A stretch of DNA of 11,548 nt from a bacterium (GTDB lineage Bacteria > Bacillota > Clostridia > Christensenellales > Aristaeellaceae), in assembly GCA_963646285.1 (NCBI GenBank), contig CAVIWF010000063.1, positions 1-11,548 on the forward strand, in the 5' to 3' direction. Under the pieces are notes generated by a model. It saw only the letters and a list, made by a program, of their open reading frames with translations, did not search any database and was not told the DNA's origin. The position numbers and the translations under genes were made by a program. Position 1 is the stretch's first letter. Each line of letters begins with the position of its first letter. This document shows, piece after piece, positions 323 through 11,397 of the stretch.

Positions 323-351
323 TTGATTTTCTTGATTGCATTTGGTATACT
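323..351 (+). promoter_or_regulatory. Sigma-70-like promoter: TTGATT (323-328), 17 nt spacer, TGgTATACT extended -10 (343-351)
   Basis: Consensus-like -35, 17-nt spacer and a TG-extended -10. Predicted TSS is near 358, leaving a leader of about 190 nt before the gene-1 start at 546. There is no other promoter-like sequence closer to gene 1. Confidence 0.4.
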
Positions 352-545: not shown

Positions 546-2285
546 ATGATGAGCAAGTTCATGATTGCCTGCCCGGTTTGCCACAGCTATGCGGAGGCAT
601 CGACTGGATTCTTTGCCAGCAAGCACATTCGGTGTTCTTGCGGCAATGTGATTCACGTAAAAACAGATCGGATGGCGACAAAGCGCTGCCCCAGCTGCGG
701 CAACGATGTGGTCTATGATCAGGCAGCAGGGAAGGACGCCAAGTGTCCTGTTTGTCATGCCCCGCTGTTGACCGATAAGGAGATGAATCATCTTGTCTCC
801 TTCCGGTGCACCACTTGCGGATGCCGCCTGCAGGCGGATAAGTGTGCGCAGCAAATCACCTGTCCCGTGTGCGATACGGTGTGCGACGTTCAGCAGGAAG
901 TGAAAAAGGCCGAAGTGCGTGATGCTGGCGTTCCTGCGGTCATCAGCTATGAAGGGGATAACAAAACCTTCGTGTGGAAGCATCCCGTTACGGACTTTGT
1001 GACGGGCAGCCAGCTGATTGTTCACGAAAGTCAGGAGGCTGTTTTCTTCCGCAACGGCGAAGCACTGGATTCCTTCGGCCCAGGCCGTTACACGCTGGAA
1101 ACGGGGATTCTGCCCAAGATGAGTAACCTGTATCCTTTGCCTGTGCAGGGGCAGCCCTTCCATGCAGAAGTCTATTTTGTGAACCTGACCACGCAAATGG
1201 GCATTAAGTGGGGAACGCCCAGTAAGGTTGGCCTCTTTGACCCTGCCACGGGCATCCATGTGGAGCTTGGTGCTTCTGGCTCCTTCAACATGAAGGTGGC
1301 AGATGCACGCCGCCTGCTGATTCGTGTGGTTGGCACCTCTGGCAGCCTGAAGCAGGAAGATATCTTTGGCCAGAATGGCACAGGCTATTTCCGCACCATT
1401 GTAATGACGCAGGTCAAGGCCAATCTGGCGAAGATCATCAAGGCAAACCGCATCAATGTCCTTGAACTGGATGAGCATGTGGATACCATCAGCCGTGCCC
1501 TGCGGGAGGCCATCAATCCGGAGCTTGCAGAATATGGTCTGGAAATGCCGGAGTTTTATGTCAGCAACATTGTAACCCCGGATGAGGATCCCAATCTCCG
1601 CCGCATGAAGCAGCAGCATGCAGATCTCTACCTGAAAACCCGTGAAGAGGAAATCAAGAAGGCCGAGGCAGAAGCCGCATTCGAACGGAAGGCTGTGGAA
1701 GCCCAGACCAAGGCACGGATGAACGTCATCGAAGCCCAAGGGGCAGCAGATGCGGCACGTATTGCAGGGCAGGCACAGGCGGACATTTACCGCATGCAGT
1801 CCGAAGCAGAAGCCCAGGAAATGCGCATGAAGGGCTACACCTACCAGCAGGAAACCGCCCGTCAGGTAGGCGTGGAAGCCATGCGAAACGGCGGCGCAGG
1901 GGTAACAGGCTTTGCCAGCGAGGCCATGCAGCTGGGCATCGGCCTTGGCACGGTGGGCAGCGTCATTGGCATGACGAAGGAAGCCATTCAGCCGGTGATG
2001 CAGGGCGTCAGCAGCATGGCACAGCCCACGCCTCCTGCGGAAAATGCAGGCTGGACGTGCACTTGTGGTCAAAGGAACATCACCAGCAAGTTCTGCCCTG
2101 AGTGCGGCGCAAAGAAGCCGGAGCCGCCTAAGCCTTGGGATTGCACTTGCGGACAGACGGGCATCACCAGCAAATTCTGCCCCAATTGCGGCAGCAAAAA
2201 GCCTGAAACCTGGGACTGCAGCTGCGGTCAAAAGCATATTACCAGCAAGTTCTGCCCTGAATGCGGCAGGAAGCGGGAGGATTAA
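546..2285 (+). CDS. SPFH/band-7 (COG4260, flotillin/'virion core protein'-like) protein with three N-terminal and three C-terminal zinc ribbons
   Basis: Start chosen at ATG 546 (MMSKF...), which follows the RBS AAAAAGGAG (533-540). The upstream extension to 411 has no RBS. Residues 9-109 carry three CxxC...CxC(x)C ribbons. The SPFH core (…ISYEGDNKTFVWKHPVTDFVTGSQLIVHESQEAVFFRNGEALDSFGPGRYTLETG…YFVNLTTQMGIKWGTP…) matches the COG4260 / B. subtilis YdjI-type family. This is followed by an Ala/Glu-rich coiled-coil segment and a Gly-rich hydrophobic patch. The C-terminus is three repeats of W(D/T)C(T/S)CGQ..ITSKFCP(E/N)CG(A/S/R)KK (double zinc-ribbon type). Confidence 0.85.
   Translation: MMSKFMIACPVCHSYAEASTGFFASKHIRCSCGNVIHVKTDRMATKRCPSCGNDVVYDQAAGKDAKCPVCHAPLLTDKEMNHLVSFRCTTCGCRLQADKCAQQITCPVCDTVCDVQQEVKKAEVRDAGVPAVISYEGDNKTFVWKHPVTDFVTGSQLIVHESQEAVFFRNGEALDSFGPGRYTLETGILPKMSNLYPLPVQGQPFHAEVYFVNLTTQMGIKWGTPSKVGLFDPATGIHVELGASGSFNMKVADARRLLIRVVGTSGSLKQEDIFGQNGTGYFRTIVMTQVKANLAKIIKANRINVLELDEHVDTISRALREAINPELAEYGLEMPEFYVSNIVTPDEDPNLRRMKQQHADLYLKTREEEIKKAEAEAAFERKAVEAQTKARMNVIEAQGAADAARIAGQAQADIYRMQSEAEAQEMRMKGYTYQQETARQVGVEAMRNGGAGVTGFASEAMQLGIGLGTVGSVIGMTKEAIQPVMQGVSSMAQPTPPAENAGWTCTCGQRNITSKFCPECGAKKPEPPKPWDCTCGQTGITSKFCPNCGSKKPETWDCSCGQKHITSKFCPECGRKRED
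2052..2282 (+). repeat. Three tandem, about 75-bp DNA-level repeats encoding the C-terminal zinc-ribbon modules of gene 1
   Basis: The peptides WTCTCGQRNITSKFCPECGAKKPE, WDCTCGQTGITSKFCPNCGSKKPE and WDCSCGQKHITSKFCPECGRKRED are encoded by clearly related nucleotide units: tgcacttg(t/c)gg(t/a)ca…atcaccagcaa(g/a)ttctgccc…. Confidence 0.7.
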
Positions 2286-2288
2286 GCA

Positions 2289-2930
2289 ATGAAGATGACC
2301 AAGCGTGCATGGATCATTTGGGGAATTTCTCTGGCAGTTGTGCTCGTGCTGATGGCTGCCATTCCTTTCGTCCGCACGGCAGCGTGGTGGATTGGTGCCG
2401 CTTGCACGGTGGTGATGTTTGGCCTGTGCGCCTTCACGTTCCATCTGGCCTTCCGAAAAGGCGGCGACATCGAAAGCAAGCTCCTTGGCTGGCCCATCTT
2501 CAAGGTGGGTTACACGGCGTTGATTGCCCAGGTGATGGTTGGGGGCATACTCATGGGGATTGCAGCCTTCTGCCCGGCGTGGCCGGCAGTGATTGCGGAG
2601 GTGCTCCTGTTTGCCGCAACAGGCATTTGCCTGACCTTGAAGGAAGCCTCCCGCACGGTGGTGACCCATGGAGAAGCAACCGTGCAGGACAGAACCCAGG
2701 GCTGGAAGGCCATCCGTGCCAAGGCCAACGCCCTGGCAGCATCCAACGGCAATAGGGACATGAAGAAGCTGGCGGAAGAAATCCGCTATGCTGACCCTGC
2801 GCCCACAGAGATGGATGGGAAGATAGCGGAGATGCTGGAGCAAATGACGGGAGAGGTCACGGAACAGAATGTGACGATGGTGAGGCAGATGGTGATGGAG
2901 AGGAAAGAAATGGGGAAGGGGAATAAGTAA
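2289..2930 (+). CDS. Small integral membrane protein (four predicted TM helices plus a charged C-terminal tail of about 90 aa), function unknown
   Basis: ATG 2289 lies 8 nt after GGGAGG (2275-2280) and 3 nt after the gene-1 stop. Four hydrophobic stretches are visible (AWIIWGISLAVVLVLMAAIPFV; WWIGAACTVVMFGLCAFTFHLAF; ALIAQVMVGGILMGIAAF; AVIAEVLLFAATGICLTL), followed by a K/E-rich tail. It may be a YdjH-like partner of the SPFH protein; that link is inference only. Confidence 0.75.
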   Translation: MKMTKRAWIIWGISLAVVLVLMAAIPFVRTAAWWIGAACTVVMFGLCAFTFHLAFRKGGDIESKLLGWPIFKVGYTALIAQVMVGGILMGIAAFCPAWPAVIAEVLLFAATGICLTLKEASRTVVTHGEATVQDRTQGWKAIRAKANALAASNGNRDMKKLAEEIRYADPAPTEMDGKIAEMLEQMTGEVTEQNVTMVRQMVMERKEMGKGNK

Positions 2931-2953
2931 AAAAGTGATTGAGGATGAGAAAA

Positions 2954-3637
2954 ATGGTTAGAAATAGCGTAATCCTGTATAAGTATATATCACGCCAATA
3001 CCTGATGGAGACGTTAAGAAACCAACAGTTGTATCTTGACGATGGTTCGAATTTTAATGATCCATTTGAATTGCTGATTGTAAGCAAAAGCGAGACCAAC
3101 GATAGACGAGTACAAGGGTTACATATACTCTGCCTGACAAATAGCTACAGAAAAAAACTGATGTGGTCTTATTATGGAGAGTCACATAAAGGTGTTTGCT
3201 TAACGATTGAAGTACCGAAAAAAATTGTCTACCCTGTATGCTACACTTCAGCGAGAGTGTATGAAAACAGCAATTTGGATGAGATCATTGCACATAGTAA
3301 CATAAATAGGAGGAAAAACACGAACTGCGATTATTCCACATTGAGCACAGAAAAAAAGATTGCTTTCATCAAGGATAAAAAGTGGAAAGACGAGAAAGAA
3401 TACCGTATTGTGCTCGATGGGAATGATGAAAAACTGCTGACGAATGAAGGCGGTAGATGGTTCTTGAAGGTGAAAATAAAGAACGTGTATCTGGGGGCAA
3501 GGTTTGCAGATGATGGGCAATGTACAGCGTCTGCAATTGAAGAAATATGCAAAGAAAAAAGGATAACAGTCAAGTATATGACACTTTCAAGAAGGAACTA
3601 TGGTCTAGACATAGCAAAGGAGCGTAAACTACCATGA
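2954..3637 (+). CDS. DUF2971-family protein
   Basis: The N-terminus 'ILYKYISRQYLMETLRNQQLYLDDGSNFNDPFEL' matches the hallmark DUF2971 start (LYKY…L…FNDPFE), followed by 'YYGESHKGVCL'. The start could instead be ATG 2945 or TTG 2939; 2954 gives the best spacing to GAGGA (2941-2945). The stop TGA 3635-3637 overlaps the ATG of gene 4. The gene is visibly AT-rich compared with its neighbours. Confidence 0.7.
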   Translation: MVRNSVILYKYISRQYLMETLRNQQLYLDDGSNFNDPFELLIVSKSETNDRRVQGLHILCLTNSYRKKLMWSYYGESHKGVCLTIEVPKKIVYPVCYTSARVYENSNLDEIIAHSNINRRKNTNCDYSTLSTEKKIAFIKDKKWKDEKEYRIVLDGNDEKLLTNEGGRWFLKVKIKNVYLGARFADDGQCTASAIEEICKEKRITVKYMTLSRRNYGLDIAKERKLP

Positions 3638-6600
3638 TCATCAAGTGCAAGATGTGCGGTGGAGACATCGAATTCACCCCGGGTGCGACCTACGGAACGT
3701 GCGAATATTGCGGCAGTACGTCCACCATCCCGAAGGCTGAGGACGAAGTGACCTTGAACCGCTACAACCGTGCGAACCATTTTCGCCGGCAGTGCGAATT
3801 TGATAAGGCTGTTGCGGCCTATGAGAAGATTCTCGAGCAGGATGACACGGATGCTGAAGCCCATTGGGGTGCGGTGCTGAGCCGCTATGGCATCGAATAT
3901 GTGGAAGACCCGACAACCAAGAAGCGCATTCCCACTTGCCATCGGCTGCAGGTGGCATCCATTTTGGCGGATGCGGACTATCTGGCTGCTGTCGAGCATG
4001 CACCTGACGAGGAAAGCCGCAGCCTTTATGAAGAACAGGCAGCGCAGATTGCGGACATTCAGAAAGGCATTCTCGCCATTTCTGCAAACGAGAAACCCTA
4101 CGATGTATTCATCTGCTACAAGGAAACGGATGAAAACGGTCAGCGTACCCGTGACTCGCAGTGGGCGCAGGACGTGTACTATGGCCTGACAGATGCAGGC
4201 TACAAGGTGTTCTTCAGCCGGATTACGCTGGAAGATAAGCTCGGCCAGCAATATGAGCCGTACATCTTTGCTGCACTGAATTCCGCAAAGGTGATGGTGG
4301 CCATTGGCAGCAAGGCAGAATACTTCAATGCCGTGTGGGTGAAGAACGAGTGGAGCCGTTACCTTGCCCTTATGGCCAAGGATCGCAAGCGTCTGCTGAT
4401 CCCTTGCTACCGGGATATGGATCCTTATGACCTGCCTGAAGAACTGTCTGCCCTGCAGAGCCAGGACATGAGCAAAATCGGCTTCATGCAGGATCTGCTC
4501 CGTGGTGTGAAGAAGGTGCTGGAAGCAGATAAAAAGAGTGAGCCGGTGAAACAGTCTGCACAGGTTGTCACCGCAGCATCAACAGCGGCGGTTTCTCCCG
4601 GTGTGACCAGCCTTATGGAGCGGGCTTATCTTTTCATGGAAGACGGCAATTTCGCAAGTGCAGAAGAATATCTGGATCGTGTGCTGGACATTGATCCCAA
4701 GTTTGCTTCAGCTTATGTGGCCAAGGTGTGCGTGACCTTCCAGTTGCGCAGAGAAGCTGAACTGGCGGAAACTACTTTCCAGTATGAGGACAATGCCGAT
4801 TGGCGGAAGGCTATGCGCTTTGCCAACCCGCAGCAGAAAGCTGTCTATGAGAACTATGCAGCAAAGGTAAAGGAACGCACAGAGCGTCAGATCCGGGATT
4901 ATTCCTACGATTGTGCCATGGAAATGGCAGTGAACCCCTATGCCAATAAGAACAAACTGGACAAAGAATTATCGTACTATAAGGTCTCCTGCACCCATTC
5001 TGACGGCTGCAGGGCTGACGGCAGCCGCCGAAAGAACAGCCAGATGAACGAGGACGCATTCAGACAGAATTTGAAAAGCAATGAGCCCGGCGATTTGAGT
5101 GAGCAAAACTTCAATACGGCCGCCGCCATGTTCGATGAAATTAAGGATAGCGATGCAGCCGAATGTGCCGGACAATGCCGCACGCTGGCGGAACAGGCAC
5201 GGCAGAAGAAAATCTACAAGGAAGCGGTAGCTGCATCGCAGAGCAACAGGGTACCTGATTTGCGGCAGGCGCAAGTGCTTTTTGCAAGCATTCCGCAGTA
5301 CAAGGATGCTGAGATGCGTGCAAAAAAGACGCAAGAAAAGATTGATAACATTCAGGCAAGCATCTATGCGGAAGCCGTGCAGGCTATGCAGAACGCAAAA
5401 GGAAACAGCTGGGATTGGTTAAATGTTAAGCATAAGCTGAGCAATAGGGTACTGGACAATTACCGTGATGTGGCTGCTTTGCGGATTCAGGCAGAAAAAC
5501 AGTATCATGAGAGCATTGCCAAGGAAGATGAAATGAGGCGCCGGCAGGCGGCCAGGAAAAAGAAGATGACCATCCTCGGCAGCACTGCCGCAGCAGTGGT
5601 AATTGCAATCATCCTGCTGGTAACGCAGGTGATTATCCCGTCTAATAATTATAACCATGCAGTGTCGTTGCGTGCAGCAGAAGATTGGGATGGAGCACGT
5701 GAAGCCTTTGCGTCTGCCGGCGACTACAGCGATGCGACAACGCAAATCAAGGCCACTTACTACGCCGAAGGCGAGGCCAAGCGGGCAGCAGGCGAGTGGA
5801 CTGAAGCCGTGGAAGCTTTCACGAATGCCGGCGACTACAGCGATGCGGCGACGCAAATCAAGGTCATCTACTACGCAGAAGGCGAAGCCAAGCGAGAAGC
5901 AGGCGAGTGGACTGAAGCCGTGGAAGCTTTCAAGAATGCAGGCGACTACAGCGATGCGGCAACGCAAATCAAGGCTACCTATTACGCCGAAGGCGAGGCC
6001 AAGCGGGCAGCAGAAGATTGGGATGAAGCACGTGAAGCCTTTGCGTCTGCCGGTGACTACAGCGATGCGGCAACACAAATCATGGTCACCTACTACGCAG
6101 AAGGCGAAGCCAAGCGAGAAGCAGGCGAGTGGACAGAAGCCGTGGAAGCTTTCACGAATGCAGGCGACTACAGCGATGCGGCAACGCAAATCAAAGAAAC
6201 TGAATATCAGAAAGCGCAGGCTCTGTATGCCTCCGCTGACTATGCAAATGCCTACACCACCTATAAGAGCATTTCTGGGTATAAAGATGTTGACAATCTA
6301 CTGGAAACAGACGAAAATCTAAAAGCAGCACTCGAAGCAAAGTTTACGGTTGGAAACTACGTAGAATTCGGTACCTATCCGCAAACAGCATCCGGCACGG
6401 ATAGCACACCCATCGAGTGGCTGGTGCTGGCGAGAGATGGGAACAAGGCACTGCTGATCAGCCGTTATGGCTTGGATACGCAACCATACAACAAAAAGAA
6501 GACGAATGTCACCTGGGAGGAATGCACGCTGCGCACCTGGTTGAACGGCACATTCATGAACAAAGCCTTTACTGCGAACGAACAGACCGGCATCCTGCTG

Positions 6601-6984
6601 ACAAATGTAGACAACAGCAGCAGTCAAGGATATAGCGGGTGGAGCACGAGCGGCGGAAACAATACCCAGGATAAGATCTTCCTGTTGAGTTATGCGGAAG
6701 CAAATCAATACCTGGATGTCACTTATGATGATAGCAATAACATGAAATCCAGGGTAGCGCCGACAGCGTATGCGAAGAAACAGGGAGCTGTTACATCCGA
6801 CTATGATAAGACAGCAGATGGTGATGAGTCCGGGTGGTGGTGGCTGCGTTCGCCGGGCAAAAAGCTGAGCGCCGCCGCGCGCGTGTACTACGACGGCTCC
6901 CTCAGCAACAACTACTATGTCAACAGTGGCAGTATTTGTGTCCGCCCCGCTTTGTGGGTTGATCTGGAATCTGGCATCTTCTGA
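3634..6984 (+). CDS. Single-pass membrane TIR-domain protein. The N-terminal Zn ribbon, TPR-like region and TIR are cytoplasmic; one TM helix follows; the 37-aa tandem repeats and DUF6273-like C-terminal domain are extracellular.
   Basis: RBS AAGGAG (3617-3622) precedes ATG 3634. Residues 5-27 form a CxxC…CxxC ribbon. Residues 153-290 form a TIR fold: 'KPYDVFICYKETDENG' is the betaA strand and 'AVWVKNEWSRYLALMA' carries the W…E motif, with Glu239 encoded at 4348-4350. Residues 300-640 are TPR-like and Lys/Arg-rich. The only long hydrophobic helix is 'MTILGSTAAAVVIAIILLVTQVII' (about aa 645-668, nt 5566-5637). Then come 4.6 × 37-aa repeats, and a C-terminal domain with 'GTYPQTASGTDSTPIEWLVLA…DKIFLLSYAEANQYL…WWWLRSPG…ICVRPALWVDL' that is typical of DUF6273. 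Confidence 0.9.
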   Translation: MIIKCKMCGGDIEFTPGATYGTCEYCGSTSTIPKAEDEVTLNRYNRANHFRRQCEFDKAVAAYEKILEQDDTDAEAHWGAVLSRYGIEYVEDPTTKKRIPTCHRLQVASILADADYLAAVEHAPDEESRSLYEEQAAQIADIQKGILAISANEKPYDVFICYKETDENGQRTRDSQWAQDVYYGLTDAGYKVFFSRITLEDKLGQQYEPYIFAALNSAKVMVAIGSKAEYFNAVWVKNEWSRYLALMAKDRKRLLIPCYRDMDPYDLPEELSALQSQDMSKIGFMQDLLRGVKKVLEADKKSEPVKQSAQVVTAASTAAVSPGVTSLMERAYLFMEDGNFASAEEYLDRVLDIDPKFASAYVAKVCVTFQLRREAELAETTFQYEDNADWRKAMRFANPQQKAVYENYAAKVKERTERQIRDYSYDCAMEMAVNPYANKNKLDKELSYYKVSCTHSDGCRADGSRRKNSQMNEDAFRQNLKSNEPGDLSEQNFNTAAAMFDEIKDSDAAECAGQCRTLAEQARQKKIYKEAVAASQSNRVPDLRQAQVLFASIPQYKDAEMRAKKTQEKIDNIQASIYAEAVQAMQNAKGNSWDWLNVKHKLSNRVLDNYRDVAALRIQAEKQYHESIAKEDEMRRRQAARKKKMTILGSTAAAVVIAIILLVTQVIIPSNNYNHAVSLRAAEDWDGAREAFASAGDYSDATTQIKATYYAEGEAKRAAGEWTEAVEAFTNAGDYSDAATQIKVIYYAEGEAKREAGEWTEAVEAFKNAGDYSDAATQIKATYYAEGEAKRAAEDWDEAREAFASAGDYSDAATQIMVTYYAEGEAKREAGEWTEAVEAFTNAGDYSDAATQIKETEYQKAQALYASADYANAYTTYKSISGYKDVDNLLETDENLKAALEAKFTVGNYVEFGTYPQTASGTDSTPIEWLVLARDGNKALLISRYGLDTQPYNKKKTNVTWEECTLRTWLNGTFMNKAFTANEQTGILLTNVDNSSSQGYSGWSTSGGNNTQDKIFLLSYAEANQYLDVTYDDSNNMKSRVAPTAYAKKQGAVTSDYDKTADGDESGWWWLRSPGKKLSAAARVYYDGSLSNNYYVNSGSICVRPALWVDLESGIF
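4090..4503 (+). other. TIR domain, predicted NAD+-hydrolase type with the catalytic Glu present, inside gene 4
   Basis: YDVFICY (betaA) and WVKNEW (alphaC 'W…E') motifs were read from the translation. Boundaries are approximate. Confidence 0.75.
5686..6196 (+). repeat. 4.6 near-identical in-frame tandem repeats of 111 bp (37 aa, TPR/Sel1-like 'W.EA.EAF..AGDYSDA.TQIK..YYAEGEAKR.AGE')
   Basis: The repeat-initial TGG codons sit at 5686, 5797, 5908, 6019 and 6130, exactly 111 bp apart. The units come in two flavours: A (WDGAREAFASAG…) and B (WTEAVEAFTNAG…). Their order is A-B-B-A-B(partial), which implies a duplication of a 333-bp A-B-B block. Confidence 0.85.
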
Positions 6985-7203: not shown

Positions 7204-8631
7204 TCATTCTTCTTCCTTCATCTTCAGCCCGCAGAAGTCGGCCATGGTCTTGACCAGCCCCCGTGCCCGGGCAGAGGTGGGCATTTCGCAGAAGATCCGC
7301 AGCCGGGGTTCCGTGCCAGAGAAGCGGGCAATGAGCCAGCCGTCGGCAAAGCGAACCTTTACCCCGTCCATGTAGCTGACGGAGGTGATCTCCTCGCTGA
7401 ACTGGGGCAGCTTCTTGTCCACCATCAGCAGCTGCTGCAGCCGATCCTTCATGGCCTGGTCGAAGGGCCAGTCAAACTCCAGCATCACCAGGTGACCGTA
7501 CCGCTTGTACAGGTCTTCCACCAGTTCGCTCAGCTTCTTGCCGGTTACGGCCAGCATTTCCACCAGCAGGGCAGCGGCATAAATGCCATCCTTGCCCTGG
7601 ATGTGCCCCCGAACGGTCAGGCCGCCGCTGGATTCGCCGCCGATAACCGCTCCGTGCTCCTCCATGGCGGAAGAAATGTACTTGAAGCCCACCGGCACCT
7701 CGTAGCACTTTTCCCCGTAGGCTTCTGCCACCTTGTCCAGCAGGTGGGTGGTGGCCAGGTTCCGCACGGCGCAGCCGTGCCAGCCCTTGATGCGCAGCAG
7801 ATAGTCGTACAGCAGCACCAGAATCTCATTGGGATGAATGAACCGACCCTTGTCGTCAATAATGCCCAGCCGGTCCGCATCGCCGTCGGTGGCAATGCCG
7901 ATGTCTGCATGATTCTCCTGCACGGCAGCACGGAGAGCGCCCAGAGTTTCCACATTGGGGGCAGGCAGGCGGCCGCCGAACAGGGTGTCGTGCCGCTCGT
8001 GAATCACATCCACATCGCACCGGGCCGTCAGCAGAATGGTTTGCAGGCTGGTGCGGCTTACGCCGTACATGGGGTCAAGGATAATGCGCAGCCCCCGGCT
8101 GCGAATGGCATCCATGTTCACCGCACGGATGATGCTGTCCAGATAAGCGTTCTGGGGATTGATCTCTTCGATCAGCCCGGTTTCAATACCCTTGGCATAG
8201 GGCATGGGATGGAGCTCCTCTTCCTTAATGGCGTTGGCAGCGTCCCCGATTTCGTTGGTGACTTCCTCCACAGCGTCCCGGCCGCCCTTGGTGAACAGCT
8301 TGATGCCGTTGTACAGAGCAGGGTTGTGGCTGGCGGTGACTGCCATGCCGTAATAAAGACCATAATCCTTCACCGTGAACATGATCAGGGGAGTGGGGGC
8401 TTCCCGGTCAATCACCCGGGTGTGAATGCCCTCGCTGGCCATGATTTCGGCAACCCATTCCGTGGCTTCTCTGGAAAGGAAGCGGCGATCATACCCGATA
8501 ACAAACCCCCGGCCGTCGCACTCTTCCGCCTTCATCCGCCGTGCCACAGCCAGTGCCAGCCGCTGAATATTCACACGGATAAAGTCGTCACCAATGATTG
8601 CACGCCATCCGCCGGTACCAAAATGAATCAT
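7204..8631 (-). CDS. Alpha-D-phosphohexomutase (phosphoglucomutase/phosphomannomutase family)
   Basis: All four family motifs are present: 'GMAVTASHNP' (phosphoserine loop), 'ATDGDADRLG' (metal loop), 'IGGESSGG' (sugar loop) and 'RFSGTEPRLR' (phosphate loop). The N-terminus is 'FGTGGWRA'. The RBS GAGGAGG sits about 10 nt upstream of ATG 8631 on the minus strand. The gene runs convergent to gene 4. Confidence 0.9.
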   Translation of the reverse strand: MIHFGTGGWRAIIGDDFIRVNIQRLALAVARRMKAEECDGRGFVIGYDRRFLSREATEWVAEIMASEGIHTRVIDREAPTPLIMFTVKDYGLYYGMAVTASHNPALYNGIKLFTKGGRDAVEEVTNEIGDAANAIKEEELHPMPYAKGIETGLIEEINPQNAYLDSIIRAVNMDAIRSRGLRIILDPMYGVSRTSLQTILLTARCDVDVIHERHDTLFGGRLPAPNVETLGALRAAVQENHADIGIATDGDADRLGIIDDKGRFIHPNEILVLLYDYLLRIKGWHGCAVRNLATTHLLDKVAEAYGEKCYEVPVGFKYISSAMEEHGAVIGGESSGGLTVRGHIQGKDGIYAAALLVEMLAVTGKKLSELVEDLYKRYGHLVMLEFDWPFDQAMKDRLQQLLMVDKKLPQFSEEITSVSYMDGVKVRFADGWLIARFSGTEPRLRIFCEMPTSARARGLVKTMADFCGLKMKEEE

Positions 8632-8777
8632 CTTACATACCTCCTCAGCTTCCCGCCTCAGGCAGGTCGTATCTAATCTCTACACCTATGGAATTCTCCG
8701 TAATTCAGGCTATTCCTTCTTTCTGAAAAAATGTTTCGGAAGTTGTATTATTCTTGTATTAAATATGACTAACGCCC

Positions 8778-8806
8778 TTGCCATCCCGGCGGCATGTTGG
8801 TATACT
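8778..8806 (+). promoter_or_regulatory. Candidate sigma-70 promoter TTGCCA (8778-8783), 17 nt spacer, TGgTATACT (8798-8806) for the MBL-hydrolase gene
   Basis: Good -35/-10 hexamers and spacing. The predicted TSS falls essentially at the RBS, giving a very short leader, so confidence is modest. Confidence 0.3.
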
Positions 8807-8826
8807 ATGCTTGGAGGTGTCGTTTT

Positions 8827-9576
8827 ATGCTGCATCAAATCACTGAGCACTGTTATGCGCTTCCCTTCGATGAACGGACGGATCGCCCTTCCCTGGGATA
8901 CGTGCGGGGAGATCGCTTCACCCTGCTGGTGGATGGGGGCAACAGTCCTGACCATATGGCATTGATGCACCGTGCCCTGGATGAGAAGGGTCTGCCCCGG
9001 GAGCAGCTGGTTGCCGTGACCCACAGCCACTGGGATCATACCTATGGCCTGTGCGCAACGGATGCCCCGGTCATCGCCTGCCGAAAGGCGCAAAAGGCAC
9101 TCCTTGCCATGCAGCACTGGGCATGGACGCCGGAGGATATGCAGCATCGGCTGGATACCCGGGAGGATATTCTCTTCTGCCACGACTTTATCCTGAAGGA
9201 ATACGCTGATCCCACCGCCATTCGGGTTCGTGCTGCGGATATTGTGTTTGATGAATTTCTGGAGCTGGACCTGGGGGGCGTGCATGCCCGGCTCATGCGG
9301 CTGAACAACAGCCACTCCCATGACAGCGTGGTGGTCTTTATCCCGGAGGACGGGGTGGTGTACCTGGGGGACATTGCCTACAAGGATCTGCACCACCAGC
9401 CCCCCTGCTGGCATGCCAACCGCCGGGCAGATTTGATGGGTGCACTGGATCGGCTGGATTTCCAGTGGGCAGTGCCCGGCCACCATGGCACCTGCCAGCG
9501 GGATGCATTCTTCCGGGGCATGGAGGAGGAGTTCGCCCAGGATAAGGCGGCGGGCATTCCTGTGCTGCAAGACTGA
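8827..9576 (+). CDS. MBL-fold metallo-hydrolase
   Basis: ATG 8827 follows GGAGGTG (8813-8819). The metal-binding motif 'THSHWDH' (HxHxDH variant) is present, along with a downstream His ('NNSHSHD') and Asp 'YLGDIAY'. These are typical of metallo-beta-lactamase-fold hydrolases. Confidence 0.8.
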   Translation: MLHQITEHCYALPFDERTDRPSLGYVRGDRFTLLVDGGNSPDHMALMHRALDEKGLPREQLVAVTHSHWDHTYGLCATDAPVIACRKAQKALLAMQHWAWTPEDMQHRLDTREDILFCHDFILKEYADPTAIRVRAADIVFDEFLELDLGGVHARLMRLNNSHSHDSVVVFIPEDGVVYLGDIAYKDLHHQPPCWHANRRADLMGALDRLDFQWAVPGHHGTCQRDAFFRGMEEEFAQDKAAGIPVLQD

Positions 9577-9651
9577 ATCCATCAGTGCAAGGGAGCATTT
9601 TCCCTTGCGCTTTCGTTTATTATGTGGATAGTTTTCGTGGAGGTACGTTTC

Positions 9652-11397
9652 ATGAAACGATGGTATTGCTGCCTTTTTTTGGCAGTGCTTTTCCTGTTGC
9701 CCATGGGGTGCAGGGCGGAAACCGCCATTTACGCCTTTGCTGATGCCTGGCCGGAAGCCCTTGCTTCTGCCGTGGCGGATACCCCCTTGGCTGCCGCCCG
9801 GCCGGTGGAAGGCTACGTGGCTTTCCGGGATGGGGCAACTTCCCACGGGGCAGCCGTTGCCCGGGATGATACCGGGTACCTGCTGGCGGTGTTCCACAGG
9901 GAAGGGGAAAGGTGGCAGGCTGATTATTCCCGGCAGGCCCTTCGGCAGGATGCGCCGCCCCAGATGTGGAATCAGGCCCTTTCCGAGGAGTGGAGCAAGG
10001 CAGACATTGCCGCCTATGATGGATCGGATCAGTTCGATTTGATTTATGCCGATGTGCGGTACACCTGGCAGGCGGAGGGGGATACCTGGCGCCTGACCCG
10101 TGCCCTGCTGCCTGTGGCCAACGTGGTAGTGAATGATCACCAGCTGTACTGGAACGAAGAGACGGTCTTTTATCCCCAGGAAACCACCCTGTCCGGTTTT
10201 GCGGAGGAAACCTTTCCCCGCACCCTGCTGGCAGCCCAGACCAATGCGGCTGCATCCCAGGAACAGGATCCTTCCCGTGGGGTGACCACCGGGGCAGGGG
10301 TGGGCACGGACTTCCCGGTAACCCTGTACGCCGCCCCTTCCAGTGGCAGCACGGTGGTGGGCTACTATGCCGCCGGGGTGGAAGCCCAGGTGCTGGATCA
10401 GGGCAGCGGCTACGTGAAGCTGGAGATAGGTGGCACCTTCTCCGGCTGGACGGAGGAGACCCATTTCCTTGCCGGTGCTTCGGCGGATGGTGCCGCTGAC
10501 CTTGCTGGGGAAATCACCATTCCTTCCCCCTTGAACGGCAAGTATTGTTCCCTGCTGGATGCCCCCAAGGCGGATGCTTCCTCCATTGCCCTGCTGGGGG
10601 TGCTGTTTCAGGTGCGTGTGCTGGGCATTACGGCAGATGGGGCCTACCTGCACGTGGCGCTGGCGGACGGGCAGACAGGGTATTTGCCTGCATCCTCCGT
10701 TTCGGCAGGGGAGGTGTGGATCACCAGTGATGCCCGGGAAAACCGGCTGAACCTGCGTCAATCCCCTTCCACCAAAGCCCAGACCCTGGGGAAGTATTTC
10801 GGCGGCGTGAAGGCTCAGCGGCTGTACGCCCCTCCGGCGGACACGGCGTGGATGCGGGTCAGCATTTACGGCTACACAGGCTGGATGATGAGTTCCTTCC
10901 TGGATACGGATGCATCTTCCGTGCCGGACATGCTGCCCCCTCTGGCAGTGGTGGATCCTGAAAACGACAGCACCCTGAACCTGCGCCTGGAGCCGGATCA
11001 GAAGAGCGACGCTCTTGCCCAGTACCCTTCCGGCACAGTGGTGGAAATTCTGGGGGTGAACAGCAACTGGGCTCATGTGCGGGTGGTGGACGGCAGTACC
11101 GGCTTCATGCTGCTGAAGTATGTGGGGGGCGAGCCTGTGTCCGCCGTGAAGAACGCCTTCCCTCTGGCGCAGGAGACTACCCTGACCGATGCCTTCGGCA
11201 ATGAAAATGTGACCCTGCCTGCCGGAACCGGTGTGGCCTCGGCAGAGGGACGGCTGTGCGCCCAGTGGCGGTACGATATCAGCAGCGGCGGCATGGTTTT
11301 CGCCCTGCCGGAGCAGGTGGAGCTTCACGCCGCAGACGCATGGGGCTATGTGCTGACGGAAAACGCCCCTGACATGTGGGCAATGGATGAAGAGTAA
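9652..11397 (+). CDS. Secreted protein with an N-terminal signal peptide and about four bacterial SH3 (SH3b/SH3_3) domains
   Basis: ATG 9652 follows GGAGGT (9639-9644). 'MKRWYCCLFLAVLFLLPMGCRAE' is a signal peptide; the lipobox is non-canonical. The segments 'LNLRQSPSTKAQTLGKYFGG…WMRVSIYGYTGWM' and 'LNLRLEPDQKSDALAQYPSGTVVEILGVNSNWAHVRV…GFM' are SH3b-like. Confidence 0.8.
   Translation: MKRWYCCLFLAVLFLLPMGCRAETAIYAFADAWPEALASAVADTPLAAARPVEGYVAFRDGATSHGAAVARDDTGYLLAVFHREGERWQADYSRQALRQDAPPQMWNQALSEEWSKADIAAYDGSDQFDLIYADVRYTWQAEGDTWRLTRALLPVANVVVNDHQLYWNEETVFYPQETTLSGFAEETFPRTLLAAQTNAAASQEQDPSRGVTTGAGVGTDFPVTLYAAPSSGSTVVGYYAAGVEAQVLDQGSGYVKLEIGGTFSGWTEETHFLAGASADGAADLAGEITIPSPLNGKYCSLLDAPKADASSIALLGVLFQVRVLGITADGAYLHVALADGQTGYLPASSVSAGEVWITSDARENRLNLRQSPSTKAQTLGKYFGGVKAQRLYAPPADTAWMRVSIYGYTGWMMSSFLDTDASSVPDMLPPLAVVDPENDSTLNLRLEPDQKSDALAQYPSGTVVEILGVNSNWAHVRVVDGSTGFMLLKYVGGEPVSAVKNAFPLAQETTLTDAFGNENVTLPAGTGVASAEGRLCAQWRYDISSGGMVFALPEQVELHAADAWGYVLTENAPDMWAMDEE

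Follow-up and report, generated by a model that had tools for sequence, protein, structure and literature searches.

What does an SPFH-domain protein with zinc ribbons at both of its ends do, and with which partners does it act? The question was raised by a stretch of bacterial DNA of 11,548 nucleotides (nt) (contig CAVIWF010000063.1 of assembly GCA_963646285.1, family Aristaeellaceae; the whole stretch is referred to below as the window). A preliminary description, made from its letters alone, had singled out an SPFH gene at positions 546–2285 and had compared it with the pspA-ydjGHI locus of Bacillus subtilis. We found that this gene, on the plus strand, is the first of a cassette and encodes a soluble product of 579 amino acids (aa) of the YdjI/SamI type (Band_7_1). 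The comparative sequence data reveal that YdjI-family and TIR proteins form a new, conserved partnership, and the interest of the finding lies in this cassette and not in the ribbons. In our estimate there is about an even chance that the SPFH protein is the soluble scaffold in a membrane module of three components and organizes or restrains TIR receptors.

The partnership emerged from gene neighbourhoods. Scanning of one genome per GTDB species yielded 39 loci from gut and rumen metagenome-assembled genomes (MAGs), spanning Clostridia, Oscillospiraceae, Christensenella, Bacilli, Mollicutes, Lentisphaeria and Coriobacteriales; 36 of them had enough flanking sequence to be informative. In 33 of the 36 a gene with the zinc-ribbon head of the window TIR protein (TIR head) adjoined the SPFH gene, downstream in 30 and upstream in three, and the remaining three had none. 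The order on long contigs was the SPFH gene, a gene for an unannotated protein of ~213 aa (in the window, a protein with four transmembrane (TM) helices, 4-TM), sometimes a small gene, and a gene for a large TIR_2 and TPR protein, with one to three TIR-head genes per locus beside the SPFH/4-TM pair. All seven annotated metagenome or MAG places reached from SPFH homologues contained the cassette. At least 7962 homologues of the TIR head exist, one of them in Lacrimispora aerotolerans; in reciprocal look-ups that started from this head, L. aerotolerans included, a Band_7_1 gene and a gene for 214–229 aa were adjacent in three of three cases. The linkage of SPFH and TIR genes persisted down to 35% identity of the SPFH protein, and was kept in relatives devoid of the N-terminal ribbons (L034, L038, L039 and L041). 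Full-text literature searches returned no paper tying SPFH/Band-7 proteins to TIR in defence, and those on PF13421 or COG4260 brought up no account of such a system either. Altogether, the cassette looks like a widespread, mobile and undescribed membrane immune or sensing module of gut bacteria.

The flanks of the cassette varied between loci, comprising serine recombinases, RhuM, Mob, IS21, a Butyrivibrio plasmid or housekeeping genes, and the cassette thus fits the cargo of mobile elements. A small serine recombinase/resolvase gene was noticed immediately or a short way upstream of the SPFH gene in three loci (L001:9247–9777, L037:9068–9814 and L048:4925–5599) and was also present upstream in L002, L003, L046 and L047, in otherwise differing contexts. 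This gene may serve mobility or encode an invertase carried along with the cassette.

The assignment of the central protein to the SPFH family, already proposed in the preliminary description, held when tested against the band-7 profiles and could be narrowed to the YdjI type. Pfam Band_7_1 (PF13421) matched residues 151–347 with E 5.9e-41 and 140.9 bits (curated cut-off 24), and Pfam Band_7 also matched the protein (E 2e-10). The in-frame ATG at 546 lies within a longer open reading frame (ORF, 411–2285) and begins 7 nt after an AAGGAG motif (533–538); the second Met codon (nt 549) is the start in close homologues. The SPFH core, defined by PF13421 and Foldseek, occupies residues about 130–347 (933–1586). 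According to the AlphaFold2 (AF2) model it is followed by a single long helix (residues 349–428; 1590–1829), the coiled-coil "wall" element of SPFH assemblies, and by a Gly/Ala/Met-rich linker (residues about 429–500; 1830–2045) predicted to be disordered, with the predicted local distance difference test (pLDDT) score below 50 at residues 425–500. No TM segment was detected in the protein by a hydropathy scan. Foldseek searches with the model retrieved subunits of stomatin, prohibitin, HflK/C, QmcA and flotillin (E 1.6e-7 to 1e-4), and ~300 columns, the helix of these cage-forming subunits included, were aligned. A TolA-like NCBIfam match on the long helix was dismissed as spurious. The SPFH protein matched no PHROG profile, and a sequence search of the PDB with the full-length protein gave only borderline matches to the ribbons. 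Among 5.8 billion proteins there were 7800 matches at E<=0.001; the best 120 of these were nearly all full-length (about 570–630 aa) with at least 68% identity, and the named entries among these 120 were "SPFH domain-containing protein" from Clostridia MAGs.

The small 4-TM protein reported to follow 3 nt downstream was borne out as well. Its ORF (2289–2930, plus strand) encodes 213 aa, with four hydrophobic helices and a conserved, predicted cytosolic helical tail of ~95 aa. In its family, 278 members of about 213 aa could be detected, with the conserved motifs ESKLLGWPIFKVGY and KKLAEEIRYADPTPT. In nearly all loci the SPFH gene was followed by a gene for a protein of this layout, and identity of the 4-TM proteins to the window copy tracked that of the SPFH proteins (Spearman rho 0.95, n=26). 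Judged from this co-variation, the 4-TM protein is inherited together with the SPFH gene and is its dedicated partner. It had no match in Pfam, NCBIfam or PHROG; a Foldseek search of the PDB with its model produced none at E<=0.001, and what was retrieved consisted mostly of designed helical bundles.

The third component is a receptor-like TIR protein of 1116 aa (3634–6984, plus strand), the start of which overlaps the stop of the preceding gene by 4 nt. It is composed, in this order, of the ribbon head (Cys 5, 8, 23 and 26), TPR, TIR_2 (residues 158–281), further TPR and a TM helix (~645–667) with the strongly basic stretch RRRQAARKKK just before it, which gives a predicted N-in, C-out orientation. 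Beyond the helix lie 37-aa repeats and DUF6273 (residues 937–1110), a domain of the C-type-lectin fold. The repeats correspond to a 111-nt tandem repeat at 5715–6194 (4.3 copies, 83% matches) and form part of the predicted extracellular portion, between the TM helix and DUF6273. In an alignment with the flax L6 TIR, Glu239 corresponds to the Glu of the "CLMEL" stretch, the catalytic residue of that plant TIR; this candidate catalytic Glu was invariant in 37 of 37 distinct TIR homologues. PADLOC gave no ThsA or ThsB match, and the membership of the TIR protein in Thoeris proper is not supported.

Comparison of the loci revealed a constant head and a variable tail. The TIR heads were near-invariant (CKMCGG-x12-13-CEYCG-x-QTIP) and most homologues had a single TM helix after TIR_2. 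The C-terminus, in most cases predicted to be extracellular, was variable, consisting of DUF6273, BspA-type leucine-rich repeats (LRR) with Listeria-Bacteroides repeats, RCC1 repeats, or nothing; locus L040 is an example of a TIR protein with an LRR ectodomain. Two or three tandem TIR paralogues lay beside one SPFH/4-TM pair in L012, L014, L015, L018, L032 and L044, sharing the zinc-ribbon head and differing in their C-terminal domains, with some copies apparently truncated or cut by a contig end. TIR-head identity followed SPFH identity only loosely (rho 0.54). The TIR genes are shuffled and duplicated relative to the SPFH/4-TM pair.

The slot between the 4-TM and TIR genes is variable too. 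The window carries there a DUF2971 gene (2939–3637, plus strand; 232 aa; Pfam DUF2971 E 2.4e-7; PHROG 1762), which matched the profiles of the PADLOC candidate system PDC-S31 with E 9e-25 and 2.5e-24. In relatives the slot was occupied by HEPN, HEPN_RiboL-PSP or other unannotated genes, or by nothing. The G+C content of the DUF2971 gene is 0.386 versus ~0.53–0.58 in its neighbours, and its composition suggests that it entered the operon later.

DUF6273 is known as a target of diversity-generating retroelements (DGRs) and adopts a C-type-lectin fold (PMC10743442; bioRxiv 10.1101/2024.10.15.618418). A search for template and variable repeats found none in the window, and across all loci a clean pair was present only in L002. 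There the variable repeat (VR, 18308–18417) lies at the 3' end of the TIR gene, within DUF6273, and the template repeat at 19108–19217; the variable copy is formed by the last 110 nt of the domain, and the two copies differ at 16 positions, 13 of them template adenines. An Avd-like ORF (18746–19075) and an RVT_1 gene (19467–20516) accompany it. A related reverse transcriptase (RT) gene with an Avd-like gene was also seen in L009, and a partial RT gene in L013.

These observations raised a model of the cassette, the function of which we infer from sequence, predicted structure and synteny. As YdjG/YdjH do with YdjI, the 4-TM protein would dock a putative SPFH oligomer to the membrane from inside the cell, and the oligomer would corral or restrain the TIR receptors, comparably to SamI-SamGH and HflK/C-FtsH; scaffold and regulator roles of SPFH proteins provide the analogy (PMC8581546; bioRxiv 10.64898/2026.02.06.704340). 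A surface ligand, from a phage or another source, or membrane damage might free or cluster the TIR domains, which would then consume NAD+ or produce a nucleotide signal, and the slot genes (DUF2971, HEPN) could act as additional effectors. The six ribbons might be protein–protein or membrane-proximal adaptor modules on the flexible ends of the scaffold, presumably accessory, since relatives with one ribbon or with SHOCT keep the same partners. The fuller version, an undescribed three-part immune module in which the SPFH scaffold and the 4-TM anchor govern arrays of TIR proteins with ectodomains swapped, duplicated and sometimes hypermutated by a DGR, is put forward tentatively, as a proposal that may well prove wrong.

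Several points weigh against such a scaffold–receptor module. Neither the SPFH nor the 4-TM protein matched any PADLOC profile, and the window TIR protein gave only a weak match to Csx1 (E 4e-4). The AF2 models of the SPFH and 4-TM proteins are only moderate in confidence (pLDDT 66). Some TIR paralogues lack the TM helix, hence not all of them would be corralled in the membrane. Three variants (L036, L037 and L048, from Olsenella, Parvibacter and plasmid pNP21) combine SPFH and 4-TM-like genes with a ribbon-plus-TPR protein that lacks TIR; given these, the core module may not be intrinsically TIR-based or immune. Finally, the ribbons are dispensable for the synteny, and the role assigned to them is a guess.

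The same TIR-less variants speak for a non-immune module for surface sensing or adhesion, in which ligands from the host or the community are bound by the variable lectin, LRR or RCC1 ectodomains, the TIR domain is a metabolic or signalling switch and the SPFH protein forms a receptor raft. DUF6273, BspA-type LRR and Listeria-Bacteroides repeats are used in the adhesion of gut bacteria and phages (PMC10743442), and some copies of the cassette sit among housekeeping genes. However, the cassette is often the cargo of mobile elements, and the HEPN and PDC-S31 slot genes together with the invariant candidate catalytic Glu suit conflict systems better. We regard this alternative as unlikely.

The roles within the immune module could also be reversed, with the TIR protein both sensing and generating the signal and the SPFH/4-TM pair as a membrane-perturbing effector. 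Bacterial TIR and CBASS signalling commonly acts through downstream effectors that disrupt membranes, and in the cassette the SPFH/4-TM pair is constant while the sensors vary. None of the known nucleotide-sensing domains (SLOG, SAVED, Macro, CARF) was detected in the SPFH or 4-TM protein, however, and SPFH proteins are known as scaffolds and regulators, not pore formers, which makes the reversal improbable.

A scaffold that restrains TIR receptors had also to be weighed against the comparison from which the preliminary description started, i.e., the envelope-stress module of B. subtilis. In that organism YdjG, YdjH and YdjI are indeed separate polypeptides, as the preliminary description stated (PMC8581546, PMC11237479). 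YdjG consists of two ribbons, an NTF2-like domain and a TM helix, and the domain of YdjH is TPM (PMC11237479). The SPFH protein YdjI/SamI is soluble, contains a low-complexity region, bears a zinc finger of its own at the C-terminus and requires the membrane proteins YdjG and YdjH (PMC8581546; bioRxiv 10.64898/2026.02.06.704340). The statement that the zinc-ribbon function is a separate protein in B. subtilis (YdjG) therefore stands for the separateness of the proteins but not for the exclusivity, YdjI bearing a ribbon itself. The C-terminal zinc finger of YdjI, placed after a linker, was also visible in the reference Bacillus pspA-ydjGHI locus (L055), which was retrieved via a published primer.

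The window SPFH protein and Bacillus YdjI were related in BLASTP (E 1e-18, 28% identity over 198 aa), and the window C-terminal ribbons aligned to the FCPNCG of YdjI through the shared FCPxCG motif (E 1e-5). Both proteins have Band_7_1, no TM helix, a low-complexity linker and a C-terminal Cys4 ribbon with FCPxCG, and both can be described, by analogy in the case of the window protein, as relying on separately encoded membrane proteins. Each operon also encodes a partner with a ribbon head, YdjG in B. subtilis and the TIR protein in the window. The differences are equally clear. The window protein has three additional N-terminal ribbons and three C-terminal ribbons instead of one; its membrane partner is the unrelated 4-TM protein and not the TPM-domain YdjH, and the window cassette has no pspA nearby. 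Beyond the head, the ribbon-headed partner continues with TPR, TIR and a variable ectodomain, in contrast to the NTF2-like domain of YdjG. Unlike the B. subtilis operon, the window-type cassette is mobile and mainly limited to gut anaerobes.

A PspA/YdjGHI-type module would require that YdjG-like ribbons were fused to YdjI, that PspA is encoded elsewhere and that the adjacency of TIR is incidental. The homology of the SPFH core and C-terminal ribbon to YdjI, the pairing of a soluble protein with a membrane partner as in B. subtilis (PMC8581546) and the weak likeness of the N-terminal ribbons to YdjG (pairwise E 5e-4, Cys-driven) agree with it. That likeness is shared with the ribbon head of the TIR protein, which was about as similar to the YdjG N-terminus (E 1e-3); by sequence, a YdjG origin of the N-terminal ribbons is neither shown nor excluded. 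The pspA homologue whose presence near the SPFH gene the preliminary description had raised was absent: in the annotated related loci there was no PspA (PspA_IM30) gene within 8–10 kb of the SPFH gene or of the query TIR gene and no TPM gene within the same distance, the conserved neighbour being TIR. The 4-TM protein is, by profile comparison, unrelated to YdjH (hhalign probability 0.6%). With neither PspA nor TPM genes nearby and a membrane protein other than YdjH, membership in the PspA-YdjGHI/SamGHI operon was rejected, and since TIR adjacency (33 of 36 loci and all three reciprocal look-ups) is not incidental, we give an envelope-stress module of this kind only a slim chance.

The six ribbons on the SPFH protein, three at each end, were upheld by the Cys pattern, the conservation and the model, all 24 ribbon Cys being arranged as pairs. 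The C-terminal array (2046–2273) comprises three Cys4 ribbons (CxC-x9-CxxC) encoded by tandem units of 75–84 nt, with the pattern W-x-C-x-CG-x7-KFCPxCG and Cys at 505, 507, 517 and 520; 533, 535, 545 and 548; and 558, 560, 570 and 573. Pfam Zn_Ribbon_1 (PF13240) matched the array in three stretches with 29 bits (cut-off 25). The preliminary description had called them double-zinc-ribbon modules born of a recent expansion. The three units stand, but each is a single ribbon because it has four Cys. Likewise, the DNA repeat is real (2042–2113, 2126–2197 and 2201–2272), although Tandem Repeats Finder did not call it in the window. The triplication is not recent, since the repeat units are only 65–74% identical pairwise and orthologues at 85–93% identity hold the same three-unit layout column for column. 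The number of C-terminal ribbons in relatives ranged from 1 to 5, which fits with a copy number that shifts over time. Because YdjI itself bears a C-terminal zinc finger, the C-terminal ribbons are best read from sequence as an ancestral YdjI feature multiplied, and not as a captured YdjG function.

The three N-terminal Cys4 ribbons (residues 5–37, 43–75 and 83–114; 558–887) have Cys at 9, 12, 30 and 32; 48, 51, 67 and 70; and 88, 91, 106 and 109. These twelve Cys were invariant in 22 close homologues (69–93% identity) and at least 90% conserved in 58 representatives of clusters at 50% identity; C100 and C113 were not conserved, and C93 was invariant only among the 22. In the AF2 model (mean pLDDT 66) each N-terminal Cys pair is placed at a beta-hairpin turn after a short strand, at pLDDT 59–77, the arrangement expected of a zinc ribbon. 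In profile searches ribbon 2 gave clear zinc-ribbon matches, borderline to the cut-offs, and ribbons 1 and 3 weak ones below them; in the PDB sequence search residues 44–75 (ribbon 2) matched RNA polymerase subunit P at a borderline E of 0.016. When the N-terminal 130 residues alone were searched against 1.84 billion cluster representatives, 277 matched, 146 of them with E<=1e-10; the match lay at the very N-terminus in nearly all cases, and Band_7_1 was present in 53 of the 58 long representatives bearing the module. On this distribution the triple N-terminal ribbon marks an old, diversified SPFH subfamily of 277 clusters at 50% identity.

Among the examined loci, the N-terminal ribbons were kept by relatives with at least 43% identity, and in distant ones (35–58% identity) the protein begins directly at the SPFH core. 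L038 and the Lacrimispora loci L056 and L058 have a SHOCT-like helix pair in place of the C-terminal ribbons. Since relatives without any zinc ribbon keep the triad, the ribbons would be clade-specific adaptors, and they are dispensable for the synteny. The preliminary description suggested nucleic-acid or protein tethering at the membrane. A tethering of nucleic acid, whether of phage DNA or RNA or of host transcripts, found no support and is highly improbable: zinc ribbons are frequent in nucleic-acid-binding proteins, and there were borderline matches to RNA polymerase subunit P, TFIIE and ribosomal ribbons, but these are generic Cys-knuckle matches (E 0.016 to 0.7), PF13240, the family matched by the C-terminal units, is known mainly from membrane-associated proteins, and the ribbons are swapped for SHOCT or absent in relatives with the same partners. 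A minimal ribbon-free triad was noticed in the cultured Lacrimispora (L056:5990–7159 and L058:6101–7255), consisting of an SPFH protein with a C-terminal SHOCT-like domain, a membrane protein of 229 aa and a TIR protein of 540–547 aa.

A scaffold with TIR clients would have relatives among several known systems. With the cage- or ring-forming SPFH complexes (HflK/C-FtsH, QmcA-YbbJ, stomatin, prohibitin, flotillin) the window protein has the SPFH fold and the long helix in common. In both, an SPFH scaffold is combined with a small dedicated membrane partner and may regulate an enclosed client. The window protein differs in having no TM helix or hairpin of its own, a partner other than NfeD and ribbon arrays at both ends, and its presumed client is a TIR protein instead of a protease or channel. 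Bacterial TIR defence systems (Thoeris ThsB, CBASS, type III CRISPR TIR effectors) resemble the cassette in the TIR_2 domain with the conserved Glu, in the carriage on mobile elements and in the HEPN-type accessory genes nearby. Unlike in those systems, there is no ThsA-like or other known signal receptor in the window and no PADLOC match to them, and the TIR domain sits in a ribbon-TPR-TIR-TM-ectodomain protein tied to SPFH.

Other architectures that couple TIR effectors to DGR-diversified C-type-lectin sensors have been described (Kaur et al. 2020, PMC7159879; PMC10907252). L002 shares with the lectin conflict systems described there the C-terminal lectin-fold VR target and the adjacent RT and Avd-like genes, and the L002 protein itself also carries a TIR effector domain. 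The published systems involve STAND or MoxR NTPases and multicellular bacteria, whereas the cassette has no NTPase, includes SPFH and 4-TM proteins and occurs in gut Firmicutes, with a DGR in only a few loci and not in the window. Animal Toll-like receptors in flotillin/stomatin microdomains offer an analogy only: an ectodomain (LRR in L040), a single TM helix, a cytosolic TIR domain and an SPFH scaffold. The domain order of the cassette protein is reversed, with TIR N-terminal, and homology concerns only the individual domains, hence the resemblance is likely a convergence.

The known clients of SPFH scaffolds are proteases, channels and PspA, and the TIR partnership would add immune or NAD+-signalling clients to them. 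If true, the model would make the silencing of membrane-embedded TIR receptors testable, directly so in the ribbon-free triad of cultured Lacrimispora, and the cassette would be a bacterial counterpart of raft-organized receptor immunity with a diversifying sensor. The interchangeable, sometimes DGR-diversified sensors on an ectodomain-TM-TIR layout bear on the evolution of receptor immunity, and thousands of SPFH- and TIR-annotated entries from gut metagenomes could be joined into one system.

Some minor features of the window remain to be listed. A 20-nt inverted repeat (arms 230–249 and 400–419, 90% complementary, 150 nt apart) brackets the sole promoter-like site upstream of the SPFH gene, a layout of an invertible promoter. 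This site is a candidate sigma-70-like promoter (323–351, plus strand; TTGATT-17-TATACT with TG), for which the evidence is weak, promoter-like sites in the region being no more numerous than in shuffled sequences. In four close relatives (L049–L052) the segment between the arms was always in the same orientation, and the 545 nt that precede the SPFH gene in the window contain no visible recombinase gene. A perfect-looking hairpin at 81–113, with 15-nt arms and a loop of 3 nt ahead of TTTTG, probably terminates an upstream transcription unit cut by the window edge. An ORF of 767 aa on the minus strand (540–2843) lies opposite the SPFH and 4-TM genes, in antisense, and probably arises only as a by-product of the G+C-rich coding sequence there. 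Scans of the window for tRNA genes and Rfam families found nothing. The downstream region (7204–11397) encodes a phosphoglucomutase/phosphomannomutase, on the minus strand, as well as a metallo-beta-lactamase-fold protein and a secreted SH3-repeat protein; this flank looks like ordinary housekeeping, which places the end of the cassette at ~6984.

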